Translations under genes and position numbers: made by a program
In this document: in pieces, positions 4,769-59,146 of the stretch
Position numbering within the stretch: the first letter of the stretch is position 1
Layout of the letters: every line of letters begins with the position of its first letter
Assembly: GCF_058153355.1 (NCBI RefSeq)
Contig: NZ_CM177019.1
Direction: 5' to 3' (one strand)
DNA: 64,000 bases
Notes under the pieces: generated by a model
The model's input: only the letters and a program-made list of their open reading frames with translations
Database searches by the model: none
What the model was told of the DNA's origin: nothing

Positions 4769-7330
4769 TTACAGCAAACTCTTCAAGCGATAAATCCACT
4801 CCAGCGCCTGACGCGGAGTCAGTGAATCCGGGTCGAGATTTTCCAGTGCTTCGACCGCTGGCGAGGTTTCTTCCGGTACTGACAGCAAAGACATTTGCGT
4901 ACCATCCACTTGCGTAGCGGCGGCGTTCGGCGAAATGCTTTCCAGTTCACGCAGTTTTTGCCGTGCGCGCTTAATAACCTCTTTTGGCACGCCCGCCAGA
5001 GCAGCAACCGCCAGGCCGTAACTTTTGCTCGCCGCGCCATCCTGCACGCTATGCATAAAGGCAATGGTATCACCGTGCTCCAGCGCATCAAGATGCACGT
5101 TGGCGACGCCTTCCATTTTCTCCGGCAGTTGAGTCAGTTCAAAGTAGTGGGTAGCAAACAACGTCAACGCTTTAATCTTATTCGCCAGATTTTCAGCGCA
5201 CGCCCATGCCAGCGACAGACCATCGTAAGTGGACGTTCCGCGCCCAATCTCATCCATCAACACCAGGCTGTACTCCGTGGCGTTATGCAGAATATTAGCG
5301 GTTTCGGTCATCTCCACCATAAAGGTTGAACGCCCGGATGCCAGATCGTCAGCCGCGCCCACACGGGTAAAGATACGGTCAATCGGGCCAATCTCGACTT
5401 TTTGCGCCGGTACGTAGCTGCCGATATAGGCCATCAGCGCAATCAGTGCGGTCTGGCGCATATAGGTACTTTTACCGCCCATGTTCGGACCGGTGATGAT
5501 CAACATGCGACGCTGCGGCGACAGGTTCAGCGGGTTAGCGATAAACGGCTCATTCAGTACCTGTTCAACCACCGGATGGCGACCTTCGGTAATGCGAATG
5601 CCCGGTTTATCAATGAAGGTCGGGCAGGTGTAGTTCAGGGTATAGGCCCGTTCCGCCAGGTTTACCAGTACGTCGAGTTCTGCCAGTGCGCTCGCGCTCT
5701 GTTGCAACGCTTCCAGATGCGGCAACAACAGGTCGAACAACTCTTCATAAAGCTGTTTTTCCAGTGCCAGCGCTTTACCTTTCGAGGTGAGTACTTTGTC
5801 TTCATACTCTTTTAGCTCTGGAATAATGTAGCGTTCGGCGTTTTTCAGCGTCTGGCGACGCATATAGTTGATGGGTGCCAGATGGCTTTGTCCACGGCTA
5901 ATCTGAATGTAATAACCATGCACCGCGTTAAAGCCGACTTTCAGCGTGTCCAGGCCGGTACGTTCACGCTCGCGAACTTCCAGACGCTCCAGATAATCTG
6001 TCGCGCCGTCAGCCAGCGCTCGCCACTCATCCAGCTCTTCGTTATAGCCTGATGCGATAACACCACCGTCGCGTACCAGCACCGGCGGTGTGTCGATGAT
6101 TGCTCGCTCCAGCAGATCGCGCAGCTCTGCAAACTCGCCCATTTTCTCACGCAGCGCCTGTACCGGTGCACTAGCGACATTTTCTAACTGCGCACGCAGC
6201 TCCGGCAGTTGCTGGAAAGCGTGACGCATACGGGCCAGATCGCGTGGGCGGGCAGTCCGTAAAGCCAGACGTGCCAGAATACGTTCCAGGTCGCCGACCT
6301 GACGCAGTACCGGCTGCAGCTCAGCGGTGAAATCCTGCAATGCGCCAATAGTTTGCTGGCGCTCAAGCAACACGCGGGTATCGCGCACTGGCATATGCAG
6401 CCAGCGTTTCAGCATTCGACTCCCCATCGGCGTTACAGTGCAGTCGAGCACGGAAGCCAGCGTGTTTTCCGCACCGCCCGCCAGGTTCTGGGTAATTTCC
6501 AGGTTACGACGCGTCGCGGCATCCATAATGATGCTGTCCTGCTCACGTTCCATAGTGATAGAACGAATATGCGGCAGAGTCGTACGTTGAGTATCTTTCG
6601 CATACTGCAACAGACAACCGGCGGCACAAAGTCCGCGCGGCGCGTTCTCGACGCCAAAACCGACCAGATCGCGAGTGCCAAATTGTAGATTCAACTGCTG
6701 GCGCGCGGTGTCGATTTCAAACTCCCACAGCGGGCGACGGCGCAAGCCGCGACGACCTTCAATCAGCGACATTTCAGCAAAATCTTCTGCATACAGCAGT
6801 TCCGCCGGATTAGTGCGTTGCAGTTCTGCCGCCATCGTTTCGCGGTCAGCCGGTTCGCTCAGGCGAAAACGACCAGAACTGATATCCAGCGTCGCATAGC
6901 CGAATCCTTTGCTGTCCTGCCAGATAGCAGCCAGCAGGTTGTCCTGACGTTCCTGCAACAGCGCTTCATCGCTGATGGTGCCCGGCGTAACGATACGCAC
7001 AACTTTGCGCTCGACCGGCCCTTTGCTGGTCGCCGGATCGCCAATCTGTTCACAAATAGCAACGGACTCGCCCTGATTCACCAGTTTGGCGAGATAGTTT
7101 TCCACCGCATGGTAGGGAATCCCCGCCATCGGGATCGGCTCTCCCGCCGAAGCGCCGCGTTTGGTCAGTGAAATATCCAGCAGTTGTGACGCACGTTTTG
7201 CGTCGTCATAAAACAGTTCGTAAAAGTCACCCATCCGGTAGAACAGCAGGATCTCGGGATGCTGGGCTTTCAGCTTGAGATACTGCTGCATCATTGGCGT
7301 ATGGGCGTCAAAATTTTCTATTGCACTCAT
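4769..7330 (-). CDS. mutS: DNA mismatch repair protein MutS
   Basis: 853-aa [24 protein letters not shown]..., Walker [10 protein letters not shown]; full length. Confidence 0.97.
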
Positions 7331-7576
7331 GGGGTTATGTCCGGTTCCCTGATATTAAATGGGGTGTGATGGTTTTTATTTTCGTTGTAATCACATAAGG
7401 CGCACATGATACCGGAGTTAATCATTTCAGGGGAAGAAGCGAACGGCGAGTTCTTGATGGTGATTCCGGGAAAGATGCTGTTTTGCAGCTTTTGCGTGAT
7501 GCTTATGAAGCAAGTACGCAAAATTGTATCAGTTGGCGACCCCTTCTTCTTCAGAGCCATAGTCCCCTTTCAAATT

Positions 7577-7599
7577 AAGTTGTAATATAAATACATCTT
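7577..7599 (+). promoter_or_regulatory. Candidate NsrR operator upstream of ygbA
   Basis: aagttgtaatataaatacatctt resembles the NsrR inverted-repeat consensus (AAnATGCATTT...AAATACATCTT), 18 bp upstream of the ygbA start. Confidence 0.45.
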
Positions 7600-7616
7600 A
7601 ATGAGGTGGAGGCAGC

Positions 7617-7970
7617 ATGTCCGGCAAGCGTATCTCTCGTGAAAAACTGACGATTAAAAAAATGATCGATCTTTATCAAGCGAAATGCCCGCAGGCGTCA
7701 GCGGAGCCGGCGCATTACGAGGCATTGTTTGCTTATGCGCAAAAACGGCTGGATAAATGTGTGTTCGGCGAAGACAAACCCGCCTGTAAGCAGTGTCCGG
7801 TGCACTGTTACCAGTCTGCAAAGCGTGAAGAGATGAAACAGATTATGCGTTGGGCCGGGCCGCGCATGCTGTGGCGTCATCCGATCCTAACCGTACGCCA
7901 TCTCATTGATGACAAGCGTCCGGTGCCGGAGTTGCCAGAAAAATATCGCCCGAAAAAACCTCGTGAATAG
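7617..7970 (+). CDS. ygbA: Nitric-oxide-induced protein YgbA
   Basis: 117-aa ORF MSGKRISREKLTIKKMIDLYQAKCP... in conserved position between mutS and fhlA. Confidence 0.9.
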   Translation: MSGKRISREKLTIKKMIDLYQAKCPQASAEPAHYEALFAYAQKRLDKCVFGEDKPACKQCPVHCYQSAKREEMKQIMRWAGPRMLWRHPILTVRHLIDDKRPVPELPEKYRPKKPRE

Positions 7971-8008
7971 TATACCGGACAGGCAGATCTGTCCGGTACC
8001 TCATGCAG

Positions 8009-10087
8009 TTAAACCAATGCCGATTTATCAATCCCCAGTCGTTTCATCCGTGATAGCAGTGTGGTGCGTTTTAGTCCCAGACGTTGCGCCGCGCCTTTCG
8101 GCCCGGCAACCACGCCGTTAGTCTCTTTTAATACACGCACAATTAGCTGATATTCATCTTCGCCCTCCTGAGCGACGACCGTTGCAGTCGGCGGCGTTTT
8201 AGGTTCCGGTAAAGCAATATCAGGCAATGACAGCTGCAGCACGTTGCCACGTGTCAGCAATACCGCGCGCTCAATGACGTTTTCCAGCTCGCGTACGTTA
8301 CCTGGCCACTCCATATTGCTCAACGCGCGCAACGTTTCGGCAGGAATGCTGTCGATATTACGCCCCAGACGGCGGGCAATTTTAAAAGTAAAGGATTTTG
8401 CCAGCAGCGGAATATCTTCCGGACGCTCGCGTAGTGGCGGCAGGTGGATCGGGAATACGTTCAGGCGGTAATAGAGATCGCTACGGAACTCGCGGTCGGC
8501 AACCATTTTTTTCAGATCGCGGTTAGTCGCGGCAATTAAACGCACGTCCGTCTGTATAATTTTATTACTGCCGAGACGTTCAAACTCCTGTTCCTGTAAT
8601 ACACGCAGCAACTTCGGTTGTAACTCCAGCGGCATATCACCCACTTCATCGAGGAACAGGGAGCTTTTATCCGCCAGTTCAAAACGACCGATACGCTGGG
8701 CGCTGGCTCCGGTAAACGCACCACGCTCATGGCCAAACAGATCGCTTTCCAACAATCCGGCAGGCATCGCCGCGCAGTTCATTTTTACCATGCGGCGATT
8801 ATTACGCCCACTGAGATTATGGATCGCGCGGGCAATCAGCTCTTTACCAGTGCCAGTTTCACCGAGGATCAGAACTGTACTGTCACTTTGTGCCACCATT
8901 TCAACTTGTTTAAGCACGCTGTACATGGCTTCACTGCGACCAATAATCTCGCCAAATTCACTATCAACATTGTTGAGCTGCTCGGTCAGGGCGAGATTTT
9001 CATCAACCAGTCGTTCTTTCAGACGATGAATTTCCTGATAGGCAAGGGCGTTATCGACAGCGATTGCCACACGTTCAGCAATCTGGCGCAGTAAATTCAG
9101 ATTGGTCGTGGTAAACACTTTCTCTTCGCATTGCGCCAGTTTCAGCACGCCCAGCATGGTGTCGCCAGACATCAGCGGTAATAGGCACAAGGTTTGAATC
9201 TGGTTGCCCCAGGTGTCGAACAACATGCGTTCGTAAGGGGCTAAATTATCTCGCTCGTGGAGATTAATCAGCAGCATCTCTTTGCTTTTAAACACGCGTT
9301 CGGTGAGGGTTCCTGCTTCATCGACTTCGCTCTGTTCGTGAGCGGGATGCTGTTTATCAAGATAGTGAGTGGAGTAGATGTTGAGTTTGTTTTTACGGTG
9401 GCTGCGTAAGACGATGCTGATATCGTCAATGTCGAAATAGTAATGGATTTCTTTGGCGACTTCGCTGACCAGTTCGTCCATATCCAGGCGAGAAAGCACC
9501 GCGTTGGTGATGGCAACCAGGATGCGGAAGTTATCGCGTTCCCGGCATAACAACTCATAGTCGACATTATTGACGACGCGGCTCTGGATTTGTTCGGTGA
9601 CGACAGAAATGATCTGCGTAAAAGTTTGCAGGCGATTGAACTCTTTTTCACTCCACGGGCGATCGTCATAACGAATAAATTCACAGCCACCAAAAATATG
9701 CCCTTCCGCCGCCAGTGGCATCAGGCAATAGTGACCAAATTTGGGGTATAGCCCACCAGCGGCCAGCTGCGGCCAGGTTTCACAAAATTCTTCGTAACTG
9801 CAATGCAGTGTATCAGGGCGCGACAAAATGCTGCGCACCGGACCGTGTGCCAGAACAGTTTCGTCTTCATAATTTATGGGGGTGTCTTTTTCACGCGACG
9901 CGTAATAAGACGCACGTTGAGTCTGCGCTTGCCACAACACAATAGCTGCATTGTCGGCGAGCGCAGAACGCTTTACCAATTGCGAAAGAGCCTCACACAG
10001 CGAGGCCAGATCGGGCTGCTGCAATAGTGTCCGAGTGATGTCGAACAACCCTTGTTGTCCGAGATCACTCATCGGTGTATATGACAT
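8009..10087 (-). CDS. fhlA: Formate hydrogenlyase transcriptional activator (sigma54-dependent)
   Basis: 692 aa from MSYTPMSDLGQ...; GAF N-terminus, AAA+ sigma54-interaction domain ([14 protein letters not shown]), C-terminal HTH; 12-codon upstream extension rejected. Confidence 0.95.
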   Translation of the reverse strand: MSYTPMSDLGQQGLFDITRTLLQQPDLASLCEALSQLVKRSALADNAAIVLWQAQTQRASYYASREKDTPINYEDETVLAHGPVRSILSRPDTLHCSYEEFCETWPQLAAGGLYPKFGHYCLMPLAAEGHIFGGCEFIRYDDRPWSEKEFNRLQTFTQIISVVTEQIQSRVVNNVDYELLCRERDNFRILVAITNAVLSRLDMDELVSEVAKEIHYYFDIDDISIVLRSHRKNKLNIYSTHYLDKQHPAHEQSEVDEAGTLTERVFKSKEMLLINLHERDNLAPYERMLFDTWGNQIQTLCLLPLMSGDTMLGVLKLAQCEEKVFTTTNLNLLRQIAERVAIAVDNALAYQEIHRLKERLVDENLALTEQLNNVDSEFGEIIGRSEAMYSVLKQVEMVAQSDSTVLILGETGTGKELIARAIHNLSGRNNRRMVKMNCAAMPAGLLESDLFGHERGAFTGASAQRIGRFELADKSSLFLDEVGDMPLELQPKLLRVLQEQEFERLGSNKIIQTDVRLIAATNRDLKKMVADREFRSDLYYRLNVFPIHLPPLRERPEDIPLLAKSFTFKIARRLGRNIDSIPAETLRALSNMEWPGNVRELENVIERAVLLTRGNVLQLSLPDIALPEPKTPPTATVVAQEGEDEYQLIVRVLKETNGVVAGPKGAAQRLGLKRTTLLSRMKRLGIDKSALV

Positions 10088-14451: not shown

Positions 14452-14575
14452 GCTGAGGCTTTGCCCGTTTTGCAGGCGTTACGCCTGTTTGGGGATGGGC
14501 GTGTCGATGAGTGTCGAAAATGACATTTCATCGGCATGTTTTCGTCAAAAATGACAATCACCTGAGGAATGCCTG

Positions 14576-15098
14576 GTGAATCGTTTTGTAATTGCTGACT
14601 CCACGCTCTGTATCGGCTGCCACACCTGTGAGGCCGCCTGTTCAGAGACGCATCGCCAGCACGGCCTGCAATCAATGCCGCGCCTGCGAGTGATGCTAAA
14701 TGAAAAAGAATCTGCGCCGCAGCTCTGTCACCACTGTGAAGATGCACCCTGTGCGGTGGTCTGCCCGGTTAACGCTATCACCCGCGTTGATGGGGCAGTG
14801 CAGCTGAATGAAAGCCTGTGCGTAAGCTGCAAACTGTGCGGCACCGCCTGCTCCGGCGCGTGTCAGCACGTTGCTTGACTGGGTGCCGGGTATACGCGCG
14901 ATCGCCGTCAAATGTGACCTCTGTAGCTTTGATGAACAAGGTCCAGCCTGCGTGCGGATGTGCCCAACCAAAGCCCTGCATCTGGTGGATAACACCGATA
15001 TCGCCCGCGTCAGCAAGCGTAAGCGTGAGCTGACCTTTAACACGGACTTTGGCGATCTCACCTTGTTTCAGCAGGCTCAAAGTGGAGAGGCTAAATGA
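14576..15098 (+). pseudogene. hycB: hycB (formate hydrogenlyase 4Fe-4S ferredoxin subunit) disrupted by a frame-shifting internal deletion
   Basis: GTG-start ORF 14576..14878 (100 aa) carries three CxxCxxCxxxC motifs and stops at TGA; the rest, with the fourth motif CDLCSFDEQGPACVRMCP, continues in another frame to 15098. The paralog hydN in this window is one uninterrupted ORF. Confidence 0.7.
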
Positions 15099-16921
15099 GC
15101 GCAATTTCCCTGATCAATAGCGGCGTGGCGTGGTTTGTTGCTGCCGCTGTTCTGGCATTTCTCTTTTCTTTTCAAAAGGCGTTAAGCGGCTGGATTGCCG
15201 GAATTGGCGGCGCGGTGGGTAGCCTGTATACGGCAGCCGCAGGCTTCACTGTGCTGACTGGCGCGGTTGGCGTGAGCGGCGCGTTGTCGCTGGTAAGCTA
15301 CAATGTGCAAATCTCTCCGCTTAATGCGATTTGGCTGATAACCCTCGGCCTGTGCGGTCTGTTTGTCAGCCTTTACAACATTGACTGGCATCGCCATGCG
15401 CAGGTGAAATGCAACGGTTTGCAAATCAATATGTTGATGGCTGCTGCCGTCTGTGCCGTCATTGCCAGCAATCTGGGCATGTTCGTAGTAATGGCAGAAA
15501 TCATGGCCCTGTGTGCGGTGTTCCTCACCAGCAACAGCAAAGAGGGCAAACTGTGGTTTGCGCTGGGGCGTCTTGGCACTTTGCTGCTGGCGATTGCTTG
15601 CTGGCTGCTGTGGCAACGTTACGGCACGCTGGATCTGCGCCTGCTGGATATGCGCATGCAACAGCTGCCGCTTGGTTCCGATATCTGGCTGCTCGGTGTG
15701 ATTGGTTTTGGCCTGCTGGCCGGGATTATCCCGCTGCACGGCTGGGTGCCACAGGCTCATGCTAACGCCTCTGCGCCAGCTGCCGCGCTGTTTTCCACGG
15801 TGGTGATGAAAATTGGCCTGCTGGGTATTTTAACCCTGTCTCTGCTGGGCGGTAATGCGCCGCTGTGGTGGGGAATTGCACTTCTGGTACTCGGCATGAT
15901 CACCGCGTTCGTCGGCGGTCTGTATGCGCTGATGGAGCACAACATTCAGCGTCTGCTGGCTTACCACACTCTGGAAAATATCGGCATCATCCTGCTGGGG
16001 CTGGGCGCTGGCGTAACGGGTATCGCGCTTGAACAACCGGCGCTGATTGCCCTTGGTCTGGTCGGTGGTCTGTACCATCTGCTTAACCATAGCCTGTTCA
16101 AGAGCGTACTGTTCCTCGGGGCTGGGAGCGTCTGGTTCCGTACCGGTCATCGCGATATTGAAAAACTCGGCGGTATTGGCAAAAAAATGCCGGTTATCTC
16201 CATCGCCATGTTGGTCGGTCTGATGGCAATGGCTGCGCTGCCACCGCTGAACGGTTTTGCCGGGGAATGGGTTATCTATCAATCCTTCTTCAAACTGAGC
16301 AATAGTGGCGCGTTTGTTGCTCGTCTTCTCGGGCCGCTGCTCGCCGTGGGGCTGGCAATTACCGGTGCGCTGGCAGTGATGTGTATGGCGAAAGTTTATG
16401 GCGTTACTTTCCTTGGCGCGCCGCGTACCAAAGAAGCCGAAAACGCCACCTGTGCGCCGCTCCTGATGAGCGTAAGCGTAGTGGCACTGGCGATTTGCTG
16501 CGTGATTGGCGGTGTTGCTGCGCCGTGGCTGCTGCCGATGTTGTCTGCTGCCGTACCTCTGCCGCTGGAGCCTGCTAATACAACCGTTTCTCAACCAATG
16601 ATCACGTTGCTGCTGATTGCCTGCCCACTTCTGCCATTCATCATTATGGCGATTTGCAAAGGCGACCGTCTGCCGTCGCGTTCCCGCGGCGCTGCCTGGG
16701 TATGTGGCTACGACCATGAAAAATCAATGGTGATTACCGCTCACGGTTTTGCCATGCCGGTGAAACAGGCATTTGCGCCAGTGCTGAAACTGCGCAAATG
16801 GCTGAATCCGGTGTCGCTGGTACCAGGCTGGCAGTGCGAGGGGAGTGCGTTGCTGTTTCGCCGGATGGCGCTGGTTGAACTGGCGGTGCTGGTGGTGATT
16901 ATTGTTTCACGAGGAGCCTGA
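15095..16921 (+). CDS. hycC: Formate hydrogenlyase membrane subunit 3
   Basis: 608-aa polytopic membrane protein. Confidence 0.95.
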   Translation: MSAISLINSGVAWFVAAAVLAFLFSFQKALSGWIAGIGGAVGSLYTAAAGFTVLTGAVGVSGALSLVSYNVQISPLNAIWLITLGLCGLFVSLYNIDWHRHAQVKCNGLQINMLMAAAVCAVIASNLGMFVVMAEIMALCAVFLTSNSKEGKLWFALGRLGTLLLAIACWLLWQRYGTLDLRLLDMRMQQLPLGSDIWLLGVIGFGLLAGIIPLHGWVPQAHANASAPAAALFSTVVMKIGLLGILTLSLLGGNAPLWWGIALLVLGMITAFVGGLYALMEHNIQRLLAYHTLENIGIILLGLGAGVTGIALEQPALIALGLVGGLYHLLNHSLFKSVLFLGAGSVWFRTGHRDIEKLGGIGKKMPVISIAMLVGLMAMAALPPLNGFAGEWVIYQSFFKLSNSGAFVARLLGPLLAVGLAITGALAVMCMAKVYGVTFLGAPRTKEAENATCAPLLMSVSVVALAICCVIGGVAAPWLLPMLSAAVPLPLEPANTTVSQPMITLLLIACPLLPFIIMAICKGDRLPSRSRGAAWVCGYDHEKSMVITAHGFAMPVKQAFAPVLKLRKWLNPVSLVPGWQCEGSALLFRRMALVELAVLVVIIVSRGA

Positions 16922-16923
16922 GA

Positions 16924-17847
16924 ATGAGTGTTTTATATCCGTTAATTCAGGCGCTGGTGTTATTTGCCGTTGCGCCGCTGCTCTCCGGTATTACCCGCGT
17001 GGCGCGCGCCCGCTTGCATAACCGTCGCGGGCCGGGCGTGTTGCAGGAGTATCGCGACATTATCAAACTGCTGGGTCGTCAGAGCGTTGGTCCCGATGCC
17101 TCCGGCTGGGTGTTCCGCCTGACACCGTACGTAATGGTTGGCGTCATGTTGACTATCGCTACCGCGCTGCCGGTAGTGACTGTCGGTTCTCCGCTGCCGC
17201 AACTGGGGGATTTGATCACTTTACTGTATCTCTTCGCCATTGCGCGTTTCTTCTTTGCCATTTCTGGTCTGGATACCGGTAGTCCGTTTACTGCTATTGG
17301 CGCGAGCCGTGAAGCGATGCTGGGCGTGCTGGTTGAACCGATGCTGCTGCTTGGTCTGTGGGTCGCCGCGCAGGTGGCCGGTTCCACCAACATCAGCAAC
17401 ATCACCGACACCGTTTATCACTGGCCGCTGAGCCAGAGCATTCCGCTGGTGCTGGCGCTCTGTGCCTGCGCATTCGCCACCTTTATCGAAATGGGCAAAC
17501 TGCCGTTCGACCTGGCGGAAGCCGAGCAGGAGCTGCAGGAAGGTCCGCTCTCTGAGTACAGCGGCAGCGGCTTTGGCGTCATGAAATGGGGTATCAGCCT
17601 GAAACAGCTGGTGGTGTTACAGATGTTCGTCGGGGTGTTTATTCCGTGGGGACAAATGGAAACCTTCACTGCCGGTGGGCTGCTGCTGGCGCTGGTGATT
17701 GCCATCGTCAAACTGGTGGTCGGCGTACTGGTTATCGCGCTGTTCGAAAACAGCATGGCCCGTCTGCGTCTTGATATTACACCACGCATTACCTGGGCTG
17801 GTTTTGGCTTTGCATTTTTAGCGTTCGTCTCCTTGCTGGCGGCGTGA
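16924..17847 (+). CDS. hycD: Formate hydrogenlyase membrane subunit 4
   Basis: 307-aa membrane protein. Confidence 0.95.
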   Translation: MSVLYPLIQALVLFAVAPLLSGITRVARARLHNRRGPGVLQEYRDIIKLLGRQSVGPDASGWVFRLTPYVMVGVMLTIATALPVVTVGSPLPQLGDLITLLYLFAIARFFFAISGLDTGSPFTAIGASREAMLGVLVEPMLLLGLWVAAQVAGSTNISNITDTVYHWPLSQSIPLVLALCACAFATFIEMGKLPFDLAEAEQELQEGPLSEYSGSGFGVMKWGISLKQLVVLQMFVGVFIPWGQMETFTAGGLLLALVIAIVKLVVGVLVIALFENSMARLRLDITPRITWAGFGFAFLAFVSLLAA

Positions 17848-17864
17848 TTAAAGAGAGTTTGAGC

Positions 17865-19574
17865 ATGTCTGAAGAAAAATTAGGTCAACATTATCTCGCC
17901 GCGCTGAATGAGGCATTTCCGGGCGTCGTGCTGGACCACGCCTGGCAGACCAAAGATCAGCTGACTGTCACCGTGAAGGTGAACTATCTGCCGGAAGTGG
18001 TGGAGTTCCTCTACTACAAGCAGGGGGGCTGGCTGTCGGTGCTGTTTGGTAACGACGAACGCAAACTGAATGGTCATTACGCCGTTTATTACGTGCTGTC
18101 GATGGAGAAGGGCACCAAGTGTTGGATTACGGTTCGCGTCGAAGTTGACGCCAACAAACCAGAATATCCGTCCGTGACGCCGCGCGTTCCGGCGGCGGTG
18201 TGGGGCGAGCGTGAAGTGCGCGATATGTACGGTTTGATTCCGGTAGGGCTTCCGGATGAACGCCGTCTGGTGCTGCCGGATGACTGGCCGGATGAACTCT
18301 ACCCTCTGCGTAAAGACAGCATGGATTATCGTCAACGTCCGGCACCAACTACTGATGCTGAAACCTACGAGTTCATCAACGAACTGGGCGATAAGAAAAA
18401 CAATGTCGTGCCGATTGGTCCGCTGCACGTCACTTCTGACGAACCGGGCCACTTCCGTCTGTTCGTTGATGGCGAAAACATTATCGACGCCGACTACTGC
18501 CTGTTCTATGTCCATCGCGGCATGGAAAAACTGGCGGAAACCCGCATGGGTTACAACGAAGTGACCTTCCTCTCTGACCGAGTTTGTGGGATCTGCGGCT
18601 TTGCCCACAGCACCGCTTACACCACATCGGTGGAAAACGCGATGGGTATTCAGGTGCCAGAACGTGCGCAGATGATCCGCGCCATTTTGCTGGAAGTGGA
18701 ACGCCTGCACTCGCATCTGCTCAACCTTGGCCTTGCCTGCCACTTTACTGGCTTTGACTCCGGTTTTATGCAGTTCTTCCGCGTGCGTGAAACCTCCATG
18801 AAAATGGCGGAGATCCTTACCGGTGCGCGTAAAACCTACGGCCTGAACCTGATCGGCGGGATTCGTCGCGATCTGCTGAAAGACGACATGATCCAGACCC
18901 GTCAACTGGCGCAACAAATGCGTCGTGAAGTACAGGAGCTGGTGGATGTGCTGCTGAGTACGCCAAACATGGAACAGCGCACTGTCGGCATTGGTCGTCT
19001 GGACCCGGAAATTGCCCGCGACTTCAGTAACGTCGGCCCGATGGTCCGCGCCAGTGGTCACGCCCGCGATACCCGCGCCGATCACCCGTTTGTTGGCTAT
19101 GGCTTACTGCCAATGGAAGTTCACAGTGAGCAGGGCTGCGATGTGATTTCCCGTCTGAAAGTGCGTATCAACGAAGTCTATACCGCGCTGAACATGATTG
19201 ACTACGGTCTGGATAACCTGCCGGGCGGCCCGCTGATGGTGGAAGGCTTTACCTACATTCCGCACCGTTTTGCGCTGGGCTTTGCCGAAGCGCCGCGTGG
19301 CGATGATATCCACTGGAGTATGACCGGCGACAACCAGAAGCTGTACCGCTGGCGCTGCCGTGCCGCGACCTACGCGAACTGGCCGACCCTGCGCTACATG
19401 CTGCGCGGCAACACCGTTTCTGATGCGCCGCTGATTATTGGTAGCCTGGACCCTTGCTACTCCTGTACCGACCGCATGACCGTGGTCGATGTGCGTAAGA
19501 AGAAGAGCAAAGTGGTGCCGTACAAAGAACTTGAGCGCTACAGCATTGAGCGTAAAAACTCGCCGCTGAAATAA
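17865..19574 (+). CDS. hycE: Hydrogenase 3 large (NiFe) subunit
   Basis: 569 aa from MSEEKLGQHYL...; RVCGICGFAHS N-terminal and DPCYSCTDR C-terminal NiFe ligand motifs. Confidence 0.96.
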   Translation: MSEEKLGQHYLAALNEAFPGVVLDHAWQTKDQLTVTVKVNYLPEVVEFLYYKQGGWLSVLFGNDERKLNGHYAVYYVLSMEKGTKCWITVRVEVDANKPEYPSVTPRVPAAVWGEREVRDMYGLIPVGLPDERRLVLPDDWPDELYPLRKDSMDYRQRPAPTTDAETYEFINELGDKKNNVVPIGPLHVTSDEPGHFRLFVDGENIIDADYCLFYVHRGMEKLAETRMGYNEVTFLSDRVCGICGFAHSTAYTTSVENAMGIQVPERAQMIRAILLEVERLHSHLLNLGLACHFTGFDSGFMQFFRVRETSMKMAEILTGARKTYGLNLIGGIRRDLLKDDMIQTRQLAQQMRREVQELVDVLLSTPNMEQRTVGIGRLDPEIARDFSNVGPMVRASGHARDTRADHPFVGYGLLPMEVHSEQGCDVISRLKVRINEVYTALNMIDYGLDNLPGGPLMVEGFTYIPHRFALGFAEAPRGDDIHWSMTGDNQKLYRWRCRAATYANWPTLRYMLRGNTVSDAPLIIGSLDPCYSCTDRMTVVDVRKKKSKVVPYKELERYSIERKNSPLK

Positions 19575-19583
19575 GGAATCGCC

Positions 19584-20126
19584 ATGTTTACCTTTATCAA
19601 AAAAGTCATCAAAACCGGCACGGCGACCTCGTCTTACCTGCTGGAGCCGATTGCGGTTGATAAAAACTTCCGTGGTAAGCCAGAGCAGAACCCGCAGCAG
19701 TGCATCGGCTGTGCAGCCTGCGTCAATGCCTGCCCGTCAAACGCCTTAACGGTTGAAACTGACCTCGCCACCGGTGAGCTGGCGTGGGAGTTCAATCTTG
19801 GACGCTGCATCTTCTGTGGACGCTGCGAAGAAGTCTGCCCGACGGCGGCGATCAAACTGTCGCAAGAGTACGAACTGGCGGTGTGGAAGAAAGAAGATTT
19901 CCTGCAACAGTCTCGCTTCGCGCTGTGCAACTGCCGCATCTGTAATCGTCCTTTCGCCGTCCAGAAAGAGATCGACTACGCCATTGCGCTGCTTAAGCAC
20001 AATGGTGACAGCCGTGCGGAAAACCACCGCGAAAGCTTTGAGACTTGCCCGGAATGTAAGCGCCAGAAATGCCTGGTGCCGTCCGACCGTATTGAACTGA
20101 CTCGCCATATGAAAGAGGCCATCTGA
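19584..20126 (+). CDS. hycF: Formate hydrogenlyase iron-sulfur subunit 6
   Basis: 180 aa, two CxxCxxCxxxCP motifs. Confidence 0.95.
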
Positions 20127-20893: not shown

Positions 20894-21300
20894 GTGAAAA
20901 GGTGGTGTTCAGTCAACTGAGCCGTAAATTTATTGATGAGAACGATGCTACGCCCGCCGAGGCGCAGCAGGTGGTCTATTACAGCCTGGCGATTGGTCAC
21001 CACCTTGGGGTTATCGATTGCCTGGAAGCCGCGCTCACCTGCCCGTGGGATGAATATCTGGCATGGATTGCCACTCTGGAGGCGGGCAGCGAAGCCCGCC
21101 GCAAAATGGAAGGCGTGCCAAAATATGGTGAGATCGTTATCGACATTAACCATGTGCCGATGCTGGCCAACGCATTCGATAAAGCCCGGGCAGCGCAAAC
21201 TTCGCAGCAGAAGGAATGGAGTACCATGCTGTTAAGTATGCTGCATGATATTTATCAGGAAAATGCCATCTATTTGATGGTGAGGAGACTGCGTGACTGA
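20890..21300 (+). CDS. hycH: Formate hydrogenlyase maturation protein HycH
   Basis: 136-aa ORF. Confidence 0.93.
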
Positions 21301-22715: not shown

Positions 22716-23027
22716 ATGCACATCATTTCGAAAGCGCCATTTGAAGAGTCTGCGCGCAAATATCCTAACGACGCTCTGGCTCTACACTCATTGTATCGGG
22801 TTATTAAGGAAACGGATTTTTCTACGCCAGAAGAAATGCGAACGGCGTTTCCCAACCTCGACAATTTTAAATATCGCAACAAATGGTACGTTCTGGATGT
22901 CGGCGGGAACAATCTTAGGGTTATTGCCTACATAAACTTTGTTAATAAGCGGTTCTTTGTGAAGCACATAACGAATCATGCCGAGTATGACAAACTGACA
23001 CGTTACTACAGAGAGAACAAAGAATGA
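22716..23027 (+). CDS. HigB-like toxin (RelE/ParE superfamily mRNA interferase)
   Basis: 103-aa ORF; similar in length and conserved segments (FPNLDNFKY, VGGNNLRV, H..YD) to E. coli HigB; toxin gene precedes antitoxin with a 4-nt ATGA overlap. Confidence 0.75.
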   Translation: MHIISKAPFEESARKYPNDALALHSLYRVIKETDFSTPEEMRTAFPNLDNFKYRNKWYVLDVGGNNLRVIAYINFVNKRFFVKHITNHAEYDKLTRYYRENKE

Positions 23028-23443
23028 CTGCTAATGCTGCACGCGCTGTTAAAGCAACAAGAGAACTGGTCAATGCAGTCCCCTTTCTGGGAGGCAGTGA
23101 CTCAGAAGATGATTATCGTGAAGCACTGGAACTGGTCGAATATTTGATTGAAGAAGATGACACCAATCCACTTATCGACTTTCTGGCGAGCCGCATTGCA
23201 GAGTATGAAAACAACCACGAAAAGTTTGCAGAGTTCGACAAAGCCGTTGCTGCAATGCCGGTTGGCGTGGCGTTACTTCGCACGTTGATTGATCAACATA
23301 ATCTGACCTATGCGGATTTGAAGAACGAAATCGGCTCTAAATCCCTGGTCAGTCAGATTTTGTCTGGACAAAGATCCCTGACGATATCCCACATTAAGGC
23401 ACTTTCAGCCCGATTTGGCGTTAAGCCGGAATGGTTTCTTTGA
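23024..23443 (+). CDS. HigA-like antitoxin (XRE-family HTH)
   Basis: 139-aa ORF; C-terminal segment IGSKSLVSQILSGQRSLTISHIKALSARFGV matches the HigA HTH region. Confidence 0.75.
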   Translation: MTANAARAVKATRELVNAVPFLGGSDSEDDYREALELVEYLIEEDDTNPLIDFLASRIAEYENNHEKFAEFDKAVAAMPVGVALLRTLIDQHNLTYADLKNEIGSKSLVSQILSGQRSLTISHIKALSARFGVKPEWFL

Positions 23444-23488
23444 TTTTGACTGATGCCAAACGCCAGATTGCCCGATGCGCAACGCTTA

Positions 23489-24718
<1,230 letters not shown>

Positions 24719-24748
24719 CATGCCTGCAATCTGGGAAACCGGGGTAGA

Positions 24749-24779
<31 letters not shown>

Positions 24780-24790
24780 TGTCGCACGAA

Positions 24791-24831
24791 CTATGTAGGC
24801 CGGATAAGGCGTTCACGCCGCATCCGGCACG
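24791..24831. repeat. REP element flanking the IS right end
   Basis: ctatgtaggccggataaggcgttcacgccgcatccggcacg, canonical REP palindrome. Confidence 0.8.
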
Positions 24832-32204: not shown

Positions 32205-33338
32205 CTACATCGGCAAGGTTTTCAACAATCCAAACGCCTCTTTCATCCGATCCTCACTGACTACAAAGGCGCGAAGCTGGTCGGCATCGTCAACGCCGCG
32301 CGCCACCATTCCCTGGCTTTCGGTACAAATCTGCCAGTGCAAATCCCGACGCTGGGTTTCGCCTGCCAGATGCAGCGGTAATTCCGGCGTTTTGATTTTC
32401 ACCAGCATCGCCGGTAGTTTCAGCGACGTGTTATTGCCGAGAAGATTTTTTGCCAGCACCATCGCGCTAAGTTGAATCGGCTGGAGGAACGGCAATACCT
32501 GACCGTTAATTTCCGCGCAATCGCCCAGCGCATAAATATCGGCATTACTGGTTTGCAGATAACTATCGACGCAAACGCCGCGATTAATCGTCAGCCCGGC
32601 GCGTCGTGCCAGGGCGGTTTCCGGGCGCAGTCCGGTGGCGGCAATTACCGCATCCACTTCGATGCTGCGCTGGCGGTCCAGCGTTGCCAGAATGCCAGAA
32701 TCCGTTTTTTCCAGCCCCTGCAACTGAGATTTCAACAGCAGATAAACGCCCATCTCCGTCAACCGATGCTGCAAGCGGCTGCTTACTTCCGGTGGCATTA
32801 ACGACGCCAGAATACTGGCAGCGTTGTCGATTAGCGTGACCGCTTTGCCTGCCCGACAAAAATCCATCGCCAGTTCGCTACCAATCAAACCACCGCCTAC
32901 AATCAACACCCGTCGGGCATCCCGCAGTTGTGTTTCACAGGCGCGATACTCTTGCTGACTATTTAACGTCAGCATTAACTCACGCCCAGGAACCGGCGGG
33001 ACAAAGGCGTTGGCACCGGTTGCCAGCACTAGCTTGTCGTATTGCCACTGATTATTCTGGCTTTTCACCACATGGGCTTCGGCATCGATATCCGTCACCC
33101 AGGTGTGCGGAAACAGGCGCAGATTAAACTGCTCGGCAAATTCACCCGCCGTCTGGCGGGTAAGGTCGTCGGCACGTTGCCCCTGACTGATCACATGGCT
33201 AAGATCAGGTTTGTTGTACTCATCCATGCTGTCGGCGGCAATCAGAGTCAATGGAATACCGGTATCCTGTTTACGAATATTTTTCACCAGTTGGCGGGCG
33301 GCGAAGCCTGAACCAATGATCACAATGCCGTTGCTCAT
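32205..33338 (-). CDS. norW: NADH:flavorubredoxin reductase
   Basis: 377-aa ORF with N-terminal GSGFAA Rossmann motif. Confidence 0.93.
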
Positions 33339-34774
33339 TTTGCCTCCGATGCCAGTTCGTCAAAGACGTCTTTGCCGAGGGAGCATTCCGGGCACAGGAA
33401 GTTATCCGGGACTTCACTCCACGGCGTTCCTGGCGCAACGTCCTGCATTGGCTCGCCTTTTGCCGGATCGTAAATCCACTGGCAGACACTGCACTGCATC
33501 CGCGGACCGAGATCAGCCGTCGTGGTGGCACAGGTTTCTTCTTTAACCACTGTATTCACCGTGCTTTGCGGCAGCGGTGCGAGCGCCCACTGACGGGCGA
33601 TTTCACGACCGTGTTCACGGCATAATTCCAGTGCATCCTGGTCCGGTCGCCATTTGGCTTTCAGGCTAAGCGACATTTCGAAACCCGCATCTTGCAGGCG
33701 CGTGGAAAGACGATCCACGGCACCGCCGCTCCAGCCGTGAGAGCCGAAAGCACTGGCGCGTTTGTTACGGAAGCGTAATCCGGTCATCTCCTCCACCAGC
33801 CCGGCGATTTTCGGCATCATCACGTTATTCATCGTCGAAGTGCCAACCAGCACGCCTTTTGAGCGGAAGACATTGGTCAGGATTTCGTTTTTATCGCTTC
33901 GGGCGACGTTGAAAATTTTCACCGCCACGCGCGGGTCGGTTTCCGCAATCCCCTGGGCGATAGCGTCAGCCATCATGCGGGTGTTATTCGACACGGTGTC
34001 GTAGAAAATGGTGATTCTGTCTTCCTGATAATCCGCCGCCCATTTCAGGTACAGCTCGACAATTTGCGTCGGGTTATCGCGCCATACCACGCCGTGAGAG
34101 GTGGCAATCATATCGACCGGCAAGTTAAAGCCCAGGATCTCGGTGATTTTCGGCGTTACCAGGCGGCTGAACGGTGTCAGGATATTGGCGTAGTAACGCT
34201 GACACTGCTCGAAAAGCTCGGTCTGATCCACTTCATCGTTGAAGAGATGCTCGTCGCAGTAGTGCTGACCGAAAGCATCGTTACTGAACAGCACCGCGTC
34301 GCCCGTCAGGTAAGTCATCATGCTGTCCGGCCAGTGCAGCATTGGCGTTTCGACAAAAATGAGTTGTTTGCCGTTGCCGATATCCAGCGTGTCGCCGGTT
34401 TTCACCACGTTGAAATTCCACTCTGGATGATGGTGATGACCATTTATTGAGTCGATAGCGTTGGCAGTACAATAGATCGGCGTATCGGGAATTTGTGCCA
34501 TCAGTTCGGTCAGCGCCCCGGCGTGGTCCTCTTCAGCATGGTTAATCACGATGTAATCGATATCCGCCAGATCGATTTCATTACGCAGGTTCTGCACAAA
34601 TTCGCGGCTGAATTTATGGTCGACGGTGTCGATCAGCACGTTTTTTTCTTCGCGAATGAGGTAGCTGTTGTAGCTGCTGCCGCGCAGCGTTTTATATTCC
34701 GTGCCGTGAAAATCACGCACTTCCCAGTCACGTTGACCAACCCAATGAATGTTATTTTTCACCACAATAGACAT
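33335..34774 (-). CDS. norV: Anaerobic nitric oxide reductase flavorubredoxin
   Basis: 479-aa ORF, metallo-beta-lactamase/flavodoxin core and C-terminal rubredoxin CxxC...CxxC. Confidence 0.95.
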
Positions 34775-34820: not shown

Positions 34821-34838
34821 TTGCAGATTGCGTGCCAG
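34821..34838 (-). promoter_or_regulatory. sigma54 promoter of norVW
   Basis: Minus-strand CTGGCACgcaatcTGCAA, good -24/-12 match. Confidence 0.7.
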
Positions 34839-34892: not shown

Positions 34893-34948
34893 GTCAAAAT
34901 GACTATCAATAAAATGGTCGATATGACAATATCTATAGTCAAATTGAC
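34893..34948. promoter_or_regulatory. Three NorR binding sites (GT-N7-AC) in the norR-norV intergenic region
   Basis: gtcaaaatgac (34893-34903), gtcgatatgac (34917-34927), gtcaaattgac (34938-34948). Confidence 0.75.
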
Positions 34949-34960
34949 AGTGAGGCAAAG

Positions 34961-36475
34961 ATGAGTTTTTCCGTTGATGTGCTGGCGAATATCGCCATCG
35001 AATTGCAGCGTGGGATTGGTCATCAGGATCGTTTTCAGCGCCTGATCACCACGCTGCGTCAGGTGCTGGAGTGCGATGCGTCTGCGTTGCTACGTTACGA
35101 CTCGCGGCAGTTTATTCCGCTTGCCATCGACGGACTGGCAAAGGATGTACTCGGTAGACGCTTTGCGCTGGAAGGGCATCCGCGGCTGGAAGCGATAGCC
35201 CGCGCCGGGGACGTGGTGCGCTTTCCCGCAGACAGCGAATTGCCCGATCCCTATGACGGTTTGATTCCCGGGCAGGAGAGTCTGAAGGTTCACGCCTGCG
35301 TTGGTCTGCCGTTATTTGCCGGACAAAACCTGATCGGTGCATTGACACTCGACGGGATGCAGCCCGATCAGTTCGATGTTTTCAGCGACGAAGAGTTACG
35401 GCTGATTGCCGCGCTGGCAGCGGGAGCGTTAAGCAATGCGTTGCTGATTGAACAACTGGAAAGTCAGAATATGCTGCCGGGCGATGCCGCGCCGTTTGAA
35501 GCGCTGAAAGAGACGCAGATGATCGGCCTGTCGCCAGGCATGACGCAATTGAAAAAAGAGATTGAGATTGTGGCGGCGTCCGATCTCAACGTCCTAATTA
35601 GCGGTGAGACGGGAACCGGTAAGGAGCTGGTGGCGAAAGCGATTCATGAAGCCTCGCCACGGGCGGTGAATCCGCTGGTCTATCTCAACTGTGCCGCACT
35701 GCCGGAAAGTGTGGCGGAAAGTGAACTGTTCGGGCATGTGAAAGGAGCGTTTACTGGCGCTATCAGTAACCGCAGCGGGAAGTTTGAAATGGCGGATAAC
35801 GGCACGCTGTTTCTGGATGAGATCGGCGAGTTGTCGTTGGCATTGCAGGCCAAGCTGCTGAGGGTGTTGCAGTATGGCGATATTCAGCGCGTTGGCGATG
35901 ACCGTAGTTTGCGGGTCGATGTGCGCGTGCTGGCGGCGACTAACCGCGACTTACGCGAAGAGGTGCTGGCAGGGCGATTTCGTGCTGACTTGTTTCATCG
36001 CCTGAGTGTGTTTCCGCTTTCGGTGCCGCCGCTGCGTGAGCGGGGTGATGACGTCATTCTGCTGGCGGGGTATTACTGCGAACAGTGCCGCCTGCGGTTG
36101 GGGCTTTCCCGCGTGGTGTTAAGTTCCGGGGCGCGGAATTTATTGCAACATTATAGTTTTCCGGGAAACGTGCGTGAACTGGAACATGCTATTCACCGGG
36201 CGGTAGTGCTGGCGAGAGCGACCCGCAGCGGCGATGAAGTGATTCTTGAAGCGCAACATTTTGCTTTTCCTGAGGTGACATTGCCGCCGCCAGAAGTGAC
36301 GGCGGTGCCCGTCGTTAAGCAAAACCTGCGTGAAGCGACAGAAGCGTTCCAGCGTGAAACCATTCGCCAGGCACTGGCAAAAAATCATCACAACTGGGCC
36401 GCCTGTGCGCGAATGCTGGAAACTGACGTCGCCAACCTGCATCGGTTGGCGAAACGTCTGGGGCTGAAGGATTAA
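34961..36475 (+). CDS. norR: Anaerobic nitric oxide reductase transcription regulator (sigma54-dependent)
   Basis: 504-aa ORF, GAF domain plus AAA+ sigma54 activator ([14 protein letters not shown]) plus HTH. Confidence 0.95.
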
Positions 36476-48919: not shown

Positions 48920-49012
48920 GGTGAGGTGGCCGAGAGGCTGAAGGCGCTCCCCTGCTAAGGGAGTATGCGGTCAAAAGCTGCATCCGGGGTTCGAATCCCC
49001 GCCTCACCGCCA
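48920..49012 (+). tRNA. serV: tRNA-Ser (GCU)
   Basis: 93-nt GGTGAGGTGGCCGAGAGGC...CGCCTCACCGCCA with long variable arm and encoded CCA. Confidence 0.95.
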
Positions 49013-49015
49013 TTT

Positions 49016-49092
49016 GCATCCGTAGCTCAGCTGGATAGAGTACTCGGCTACGAACCGAGCGGTCGGAGGTTCGAATCCTCCCGGATGCACCA
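49016..49092 (+). tRNA. argV: tRNA-Arg (ACG), copy 1
   Basis: 77-nt GCATCCGTAGCTCAGCTGGATAGAGTACTCGGCTACGAACCGAGCGGTCGGAGGTTCGAATCCTCCCGGATGCACCA; anticodon loop CT-ACG-AA. Confidence 0.95.
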
Positions 49093-49155
49093 TATTCTAC
49101 GAAATCTTCAGCGATGAAGGTGTCGAAGAGGTGGCGGTACTAACCGCAAGCACTA

Positions 49156-49227
49156 GGGAGGATAACGTTGCTTTAGCAACGGCCCGAAGGGCGAGCCGTA
49201 AGGCGAGTAATCCTCCCGGATGCACCA
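49156..49227 (+). other. Degenerate tRNA-Arg remnant (3' acceptor/T-stem half retained, body replaced)
   Basis: gggagg...[unrelated ~50 nt]...aatcctcccggatgcacca; the last 19 nt are identical to the 3' end of the intact copies. Confidence 0.5.
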
Positions 49228-49291
49228 TCTCTTACTTGATACGGCTTTAGTAGCGGTATCAAAAAATCTGCAGTAAAGTAAGTTTCCCGAT

Positions 49292-49368
49292 GCATCCGTA
49301 GCTCAGCTGGATAGAGTACTCGGCTACGAACCGAGCGGTCGGAGGTTCGAATCCTCCCGGATGCACCA
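49292..49368 (+). tRNA. tRNA-Arg (ACG), copy 2
   Basis: Identical 77-nt sequence to copy 1. Confidence 0.95.
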
Positions 49369-49470
49369 TATTCTCCGTAATCATCAGTGATGATGGTTAA
49401 GATGGATTTTCTTATTTGATATGGCTTTAGTAGCGGTATCAATATCAGCAGTAAAATAAGTTTTCCCGAT

Positions 49471-49547
49471 GCATCCGTAGCTCAGCTGGATAGAGTACTC
49501 GGCTACGAACCGAGCGGTCGGAGGTTCGAATCCTCCCGGATGCACCA
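49471..49547 (+). tRNA. tRNA-Arg (ACG), copy 3
   Basis: Identical 77-nt sequence to copy 1. Confidence 0.95.
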
Positions 49548-52389: not shown

Positions 52390-52462
52390 AAAAAGGCCAC
52401 TCGTGAGTGGCCAAAATTTCATCTCTGAATTCAGGGATGATGATAACAAATGCGCGTCTTTC
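52390..52462 (-). ncRNA. micA: MicA (SraD) small regulatory RNA
   Basis: Minus strand reads GAAAGACGCGCATTTGTTATCATCATCCCTGAATTCAGAGATGAAATTTTGGCCACTCACGAGTGGCCTTTTT, the MicA sequence with its terminator, between gshA and luxS. Confidence 0.9.
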
Positions 52463-58955: not shown

Positions 58956-59067
58956 TATTTTTATTCATCAGGTGATGATTAAGCTGGAAATCAATAATAG
59001 CGGATGTTGATGAATATGGGATGAAAGATAGATTGTTGAAATGTGCGGTGTGGTTTGTAGACATGAT

Positions 59068-59128
59068 AAGACGCGGCCGCGTCGCATCAGGCATTGTGTA
59101 CAGAGCGGCGGATAAGGCGAAAACGCCT
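59068..59128. repeat. REP elements between ygaY and proX
   Basis: gacgcggccgcgtcgcatcaggc and gcggcggataaggcgaaaacgccttatccgccc palindromes. Confidence 0.75.
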
Positions 59129-59146
59129 TATCCGCCCGAATAAAAA

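Follow-up and report, generated by a model that had tools for sequence, protein, structure and literature searches.

NsrR operators and the place of ygbA in the NsrR regulon

Among the closest described counterparts of the site analysed here are the NsrR operators of ytfE, hcp and hmp, which belong to the core enterobacterial NsrR regulon. These operators follow the consensus AAGATGYATTT-N-AAATRCATCTT, for which Rodionov et al. 2005 gave the form gATGyAT-N5-ATrCATc. Like them, the ygbA box is an 11-1-11 inverted repeat lying near the start codon of a gene of the nitric oxide (NO) stress response. Two reports on [4Fe-4S] NsrR describe a protein that binds DNA as a dimer and senses NO through degradation of its cluster (PMC5411485, PMC9338935).

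Membership of ygbA in the NsrR regulon has been textbook knowledge since 2005-2006, and published genome scans include its 23-bp box. The gene was already mentioned by Rodionov et al. 2005. Regulation of E. coli ygbA by NsrR was reported by Bodenmiller & Spiro 2006, and NsrR was located at ygbA by ChIP-chip in K-12 (Partridge 2009), both as cited in PMC5320621. In Salmonella Typhimurium, ygbA mRNA was up 31.8-fold in an nsrR mutant (PMC2884951). In CFT073, ygbA was one of the genes that nitrate-derived NO strongly induced. The CFT073 ygbA site had ln P = -16.65 in a published genome scan, and NsrR ChIP-seq in this strain gave no ygbA peak, which its authors judged to be a probable false negative (PMC5320621).

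The box that we describe is this already-described ygbA operator, and its identification is not in itself new. The finding carries little weight beyond correct annotation. Our small additions are a dual-coding account of the degenerate left arm, which would supply a concrete occlusion model, and a rare allele of the box.

The ygbA box and its surroundings

We analysed a continuous stretch of DNA of 64,000 nucleotides, referred to as the window. The original prediction had placed an NsrR-like operator at ygbA, ending 18 bp upstream of the start of the gene, and both its sequence and its distance proved exact when positions 7577-7599 were reread. The 23 bases read directly from the plus strand of the window are AAGTTGTAATATAAATACATCTT (= aagttgtaatataaatacatctt). 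The last base of the box lies at -18 relative to the ygbA ATG at 7617, leaving 17 nt between the two (7600-7616). Scoring with a position weight matrix (PWM), the published K-12 and CFT073 sites, and orthologous promoters all supported the NsrR assignment, and we are highly confident that 7577-7599 is a functional NsrR operator of ygbA. The features of the locus are as follows.

7577-7599, + strand: NsrR operator (very probable), an 11-1-11 inverted repeat AAGTTGTAATA-T-AAATACATCTT (sequence, PWM, K-12 and CFT073 sites, orthologues)
7589-7599, - strand: strong half-site AAGATGTATTT, reading AAATACATCTT on the + strand (half-site PWM)
7577-7587, + strand: weak half-site AAGTTGTAATA (half-site PWM and orthologue columns)
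7605-7612, + strand: Shine-Dalgarno sequence GGTGGAGG, 4 nt 5' of the ATG (read from the sequence)
7617-7970, + strand: ygbA coding sequence, 117 aa, YgbA_NO family (open reading frame and Pfam PF11756)

The ygbA product matched Pfam PF11756 (YgbA_NO) with E = 1.8e-40, and its start codon is identical to that in the K-12 and EC42405 annotations. Gene order across the window is mutS (4769-7330, - strand), ygbA (+), fhlA (-), hypEDCBA, hycA-I, asc, hydN-hypF, norW-norV (-) and norR (+). From mutS to norR this is the K-12 arrangement in reversed orientation. The 401 bases around the box were matched in 5,419 of the 5,426 complete E. coli genomes, with EC42405 giving the best match at 99.5%, and the window is E. 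coli chromosomal DNA. The regulator itself is encoded elsewhere: nsrR is absent from the 64-kb window, and it was found in all but one of the complete E. coli genomes (5,425 of 5,426), with an identity of at least 99% in 5,297.

We also considered a coding explanation for the DNA immediately upstream of ygbA. The open reading frame at 7406-7585 (+) matched no Pfam family, and in-frame stops interrupt it in K-12 and several other Escherichia; it was therefore rejected as a gene. In many E. coli genomes PGAP lists this 59-aa frame, whose stop codon TAA (7583-7585) lies inside the box, as a "hypothetical protein" (WP_032303651.1), an annotation that is probably spurious. A scan of the whole window at Rfam gathering thresholds placed no structured RNA near ygbA.

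Strength of the NsrR match

To score the box independently of its own published record, we assembled a training set that excluded ygbA. Starting from the 27 NsrR sites in Table 4 of Mehta et al. 2015 (PMC5320621), we kept 16 distinct ChIP-seq-positive CFT073 sites and derived from them a palindromised log-odds matrix, which is our own and not identical to the published one. With this matrix the box scored 22.6 bits (21.5 in exact-distribution scoring) and ranked first among the 63,978 positions of the window, the next match reaching 17.0 bits. Its score was comparable with those of hmp (22.1) and yeaR (22.6) and lay within the range of ChIP-positive sites. The scan that the original prediction had proposed as a check, with an NsrR matrix, thus returned the box as the top match of the window and above threshold.

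A score of this size is rarely produced by chance. None of 5 million random positions was as strong as the box. The exact DP p value per position was 2.2e-8 for a uniform background, 1.3e-8 for the composition of the window, and 2.5e-7 for a background of 65% A+T, giving an expectation of 0.0014-0.016 such scores per 64 kb. Expressed as ln P, the box fell between -15.2 and -18.2 depending on background, past the published genome-scan cut-off of -14.28, although the comparison is indicative only because the matrices differ. The box departs from the consensus AAGATGYATTTNAAATRCATCTT by 3 mismatches over 22 specified positions, which was equalled in 0 of 200 shuffles of the intergenic sequence. 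Both forms of the NsrR consensus outdid all 200 shuffles of the mutS-ygbA intergenic region.

The same shuffles bear on whether some other regulator recognises the box instead of NsrR. The candidates were IscR, Fur, FNR, NarL, CRP and OxyR. IscR is an Rrf2 paralogue of NsrR, and a palindrome rich in A+T may look like more than one kind of operator. However, the best matches to Fur, FNR, IscR type 1 and type 2, NarL 7-2-7, CRP and OxyR motifs in the mutS-ygbA intergenic region were equalled by 15%-99% of shuffles, and only that of OxyR overlapped the box. We give replacement of NsrR by any of these regulators hardly any credence.

The two arms of the NsrR box contribute unequally. An 11-bp half-site PWM gave the right half 14.46 of a maximum of 15.57 bits, and a right half-site of this strength is expected by chance 0.15-0.5 times per 64 kb when both strands are counted. 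The left half scored 7.2 bits (p ~1e-3 per position), in the lower third of genuine half-sites. The good match to the right half of the inverted repeat that had been noticed at the outset is borne out by these values. The arms are nevertheless identical at 8 of 11 positions, and the box comprises both arms of an 11-1-11 operator, the left one degenerate, which is more than a right half-site.

Comparison with K-12 and CFT073

The ygbA NsrR sites described for K-12 and CFT073 (Bodenmiller & Spiro 2006; Partridge et al. 2009; Mehta et al. 2015, PMC5320621 Table 4) occupy the same locus, with the same spacing of 17 nt and the same 23-bp box. The suggested comparison with the K-12 upstream region found the same box in K-12 MG1655 with a single base changed: position 4 is T in the window (AAGTTG...) and A in K-12 (AAGATG...). 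The published CFT073 ygbA site, AAGGTGCATTTATATTACAACTT (reverse complement AAGTTGTAATATAAATGCACCTT), differs from the window by two substitutions, having G rather than A at position 17 and C rather than T at position 20. These differences barely moved the PWM score, which was 21.3 bits for the K-12 allele, 21.4 for that of CFT073, and 21.5 for the window.

We surveyed the complete E. coli genomes with the 40-mer at 7574-7613. It occurred exactly in 15 of 5,426 genomes; 2,118 genomes were one base off, with the K-12-derived J53 among those listed, and ~3,280 were without the 28-base seed. Because the exact 40-mer is confined to those 15 genomes, the allele of the window is taken to be rare. 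Judged by its bases, the window allele (T4/A17/T20) looks like a rare form midway between the two alleles common in E. coli, the K-12-type (A4/A17/T20) and the CFT073-type (T4/G17/C20).

Conservation in orthologous promoters

We next compared the box with orthologous promoters, using one genome per species and yielding 80 ygbA loci of ~3 kb each. These came from Escherichia, Citrobacter, Salmonella, Klebsiella, Raoultella, Enterobacter, Kluyvera, Leclercia, Lelliottia, Pluralibacter, Phytobacter and other taxa. Absence of the site from such promoters would have counted against the original prediction, and we found it to be widely present. Within the 250 bp upstream of ygbA, the best PWM match reached at least 15 bits in 68 of 80 loci (median 18.9). 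The best upstream match lay 12-22 nt 5' of the start codon in 79 of 80 loci, and it combined this placement with at least 15 bits in 68. Across the remainder of the 80 loci no position reached 15 bits, the median best score being 6.0.

Among 75 distinct sequences, information content averaged 1.42 bits per column in the box, as compared with 0.22 over the 60 bp on its upstream side and 0.41 on its downstream side. The box stands out as a sharply bounded block of conservation in an intergenic region that otherwise evolves fast. Near-invariant columns were A1, A2, G6, T7, A8, A11, T12, A15, T16, G/A17, C18, A19, T22 and T23, and they included the mirror pairs A1/T23, A2/T22, G6/C18, T7/R17 and A8/T16. 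At 18 of 23 positions the orthologue consensus agreed with the independent NsrR matrix. The mirror symmetry of the invariant columns fits a dimer that would contact both arms.

One of the orthologous loci was labelled 'Chryseobacterium sp. 18061'. It contains a typical enterobacterial ygbA, at 81% identity, together with an NsrR box. The assembly bearing this label is probably mislabelled or contaminated.

Probable overlap with the core promoter

Some of the conserved columns were not those that NsrR would be expected to maintain. A11 is invariant among orthologues, yet it has a frequency of 0.07 in the NsrR PWM, where T is preferred. Similarly, T12 is invariant although position 12 is the spacer, to which the NsrR matrix assigns 0.01 bits. 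In 73 of 74 orthologues TAnnAT occupies box positions 7-12, taking the form TATTAT in 49; the window has TAATAT. Since A11 and T12 are invariant without being preferred by NsrR, the left half probably doubles as a -10 hexamer. In the upstream flank, the sole conserved patch was a G at box position -14, whose information content of 1.6 bits compares with an average of 0.22 across the flank. This G sits in a TTG/TAG/CTG triplet, so that orthologues read nTGnnn or TAGnnn and the window reads TAGTCC. The resulting promoter elements are predictions.

7583-7588, + strand: predicted sigma-70 -10 hexamer TAATAT, in the left half and spacer (orthologue columns)
7560-7565, + strand: predicted weak -35 hexamer TAGTCC, preceding the -10 by 17 bp (conserved flank patch)
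7594-7596, + strand: predicted transcription start, ~7595 (A), in the right half-site and 7 nt past the -10 (geometry only)

A consensus promoter scan of 7300-8050 returned no sigma-70 promoter, because the predicted -35/-10 pair matches the consensus at just 7 of 12 positions. The supplement of PMC10301672, consulted for transcription start data, has no ygbA entry. On balance we think it likely, from the pattern of conserved columns, that the box overlaps the -10 and +1 of the ygbA promoter.

This arrangement suggests a reason for the asymmetry of the operator. The right arm of the ygbA box is nearly identical to that of ytfE, whereas the left arm is far more degenerate at ygbA than at ytfE, and the whole sites score 22.6 and 31.4 bits, respectively. 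The left arm is probably degenerate because the same bases would encode the -10 hexamer.

We asked whether a promoter element in the left arm could remove the need for a second half-site altogether. The right arm (7589-7599) would then be the NsrR site by itself, as a single 11-bp motif, and conservation of the left arm would be due to its role as a -10 alone, with NsrR contacting none of its bases specifically. The disparity between the half scores (14.46 vs 7.2 bits) is consistent with this, as is the result, reported by Partridge 2009 as cited in PMC5320621, that single 11-bp motifs suffice for NsrR binding in vivo. The invariance of A11 and T12 also reflects the promoter rather than NsrR. 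However, A1, A2 and G6 fall outside the -10 and are still near-invariant in 75 orthologues, where they mirror T23, T22 and C18. Moreover, the left half score is inside the range of genuine ChIP-seq half-sites, and the 11-1-11 scan of the published CFT073 analysis accepts the 23-mer as a whole (PMC5320621). We consider a right-arm-only site unlikely.

A more extreme position is that the box is merely the A+T-rich core promoter of ygbA, unbound by NsrR in vivo in at least some strains, with induction by NO being indirect. The missing ygbA peak in CFT073 ChIP-seq would be expected in that case, and the probable -10 hexamer within the box is in agreement. Nonetheless, the right arm (ATRCATCTT) lies 3' of the -10, where it has no promoter role, and it is both the best-conserved part of the box and a near-perfect NsrR half-site. 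In addition, ChIP-chip in K-12 was positive, nsrR mutants derepress ygbA, and only 0.0014-0.016 matches of this strength are expected by chance per 64 kb. These observations make the promoter-only explanation very improbable, and we retain the full 11-1-11 operator overlapping a probable promoter.

Proposed mechanism and allelic variation

NsrR is an Rrf2-family homodimer carrying an iron-sulfur cluster. Under the full-operator reading, the protein would bind the 11-1-11 repeat as long as its cluster is intact. Most of the specificity would come from the right arm AAATACATCTT, while the left arm AAGTTGTAATA would also encode the -10 hexamer TAATAT (7583-7588). Counted from the predicted start near 7595, the box would cover approximately -19 to +5, such that NsrR on the box would shut out RNA polymerase and hold ygbA silent. 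Nitrosylation of the cluster by NO releases NsrR from the DNA (PMC5411485, PMC9338935, PMC5320621), which would permit transcription of ygbA. The occlusion geometry depends on the predicted -10, -35 and transcription start.

It is tempting to combine the allele differences with this model. In that case, box alleles would tune NsrR occupancy among E. coli lineages. We regard such tuning as speculative and doubtful. If it were true, the allele differences could account for the positive ChIP result at ygbA in K-12 and the negative one in CFT073, and, given the probable dual coding of the left arm as -10 and operator, the ygbA promoter would represent a natural repressor site evolving under two overlapping constraints.

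Other NO-responsive sites in the window

The original prediction had counted two NO-responsive control points in the window, NsrR at ygbA and NorR at norVW. Both are present, but the count was too low, as an NsrR site at hycB makes at least three. The additional features are as follows.

14518-14540, + strand: second NsrR 11-1-11 site AAATGACATTTCATCGGCATGTT, between hycA and hycB (identical to the CFT073 hycB site)
34938-34948, 34917-34927 and 34893-34903, - strand: three NorR enhancer sites GT-N7-AC upstream of norV, GTCAATTTGAC, GTCATATCGAC and GTCATTTTGAC, respectively (read and matched by regular expression)
34822-34837, - strand: sigma-54 promoter of norVW, TGGCACgcaatcTGCA, TGGCAC-N6-TGCA (read and matched by regular expression)

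The hycB site (14518-14540) was the second-best PWM match in the window, and it remained second, at 14.2 bits, when it was excluded from training. In CFT073 the hycB site had 16-fold ChIP-seq enrichment and was among the strongest peaks (PMC5320621). A weak NsrR ChIP peak has also been published for the hycA/hypA intergenic region. Expression of hycB in nitrate-grown CFT073 was 0.01-fold, that is, strongly down-regulated and not induced.

The NorR sites conform to the published definition GT-N7-AC (PMC1274295). Together with the GG-N10-GC sigma-54 promoter, they lie between the divergent genes norV (33335-34774, - strand) and norR (34961-36475, + strand). The norVW NorR system and ygbA NsrR are both NO-responsive and both in the window, but they differ in family, motif and logic: NorR is a sigma-54 activator at three upstream GT-N7-AC sites, whereas NsrR is a repressor on a sigma-70 core promoter. 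The 64-kb window accordingly contains at least three NO-responsive control regions that can be identified from sequence (ygbA-NsrR, hycB-NsrR and norVW-NorR).

Additional features of the window

The window differs from EC42405, its best match around the box, in several places. Downstream of hycB, the hyc genes are offset by -90 bp (hycI lies at 21293 in the window as against 21383 in EC42405), which implies an indel of ~90 bp somewhere in hycB-hycF (~14600-19600). The norV-norR region is likewise not collinear with EC42405, the window differing by indels. Rfam matches at 48920-49544, 52391-52462 and 59060-59137 correspond to a four-tRNA cluster (three with identical scores), the MicA sRNA (- strand) and naRNA4 (CssrE). 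The naRNA4 match barely exceeds its gathering score, and all of these matches are unrelated to the ygbA box.

Between ascB and a higA-like HTH gene (23024-23443), the window has ~1.27 kb that EC42405 lacks. This segment holds an IS110-family transposase of 326 aa (PF01548 and PF02371) at 23689-24669 (+ strand), within ~23450-24830. In size and protein length this element resembles IS621-type elements.
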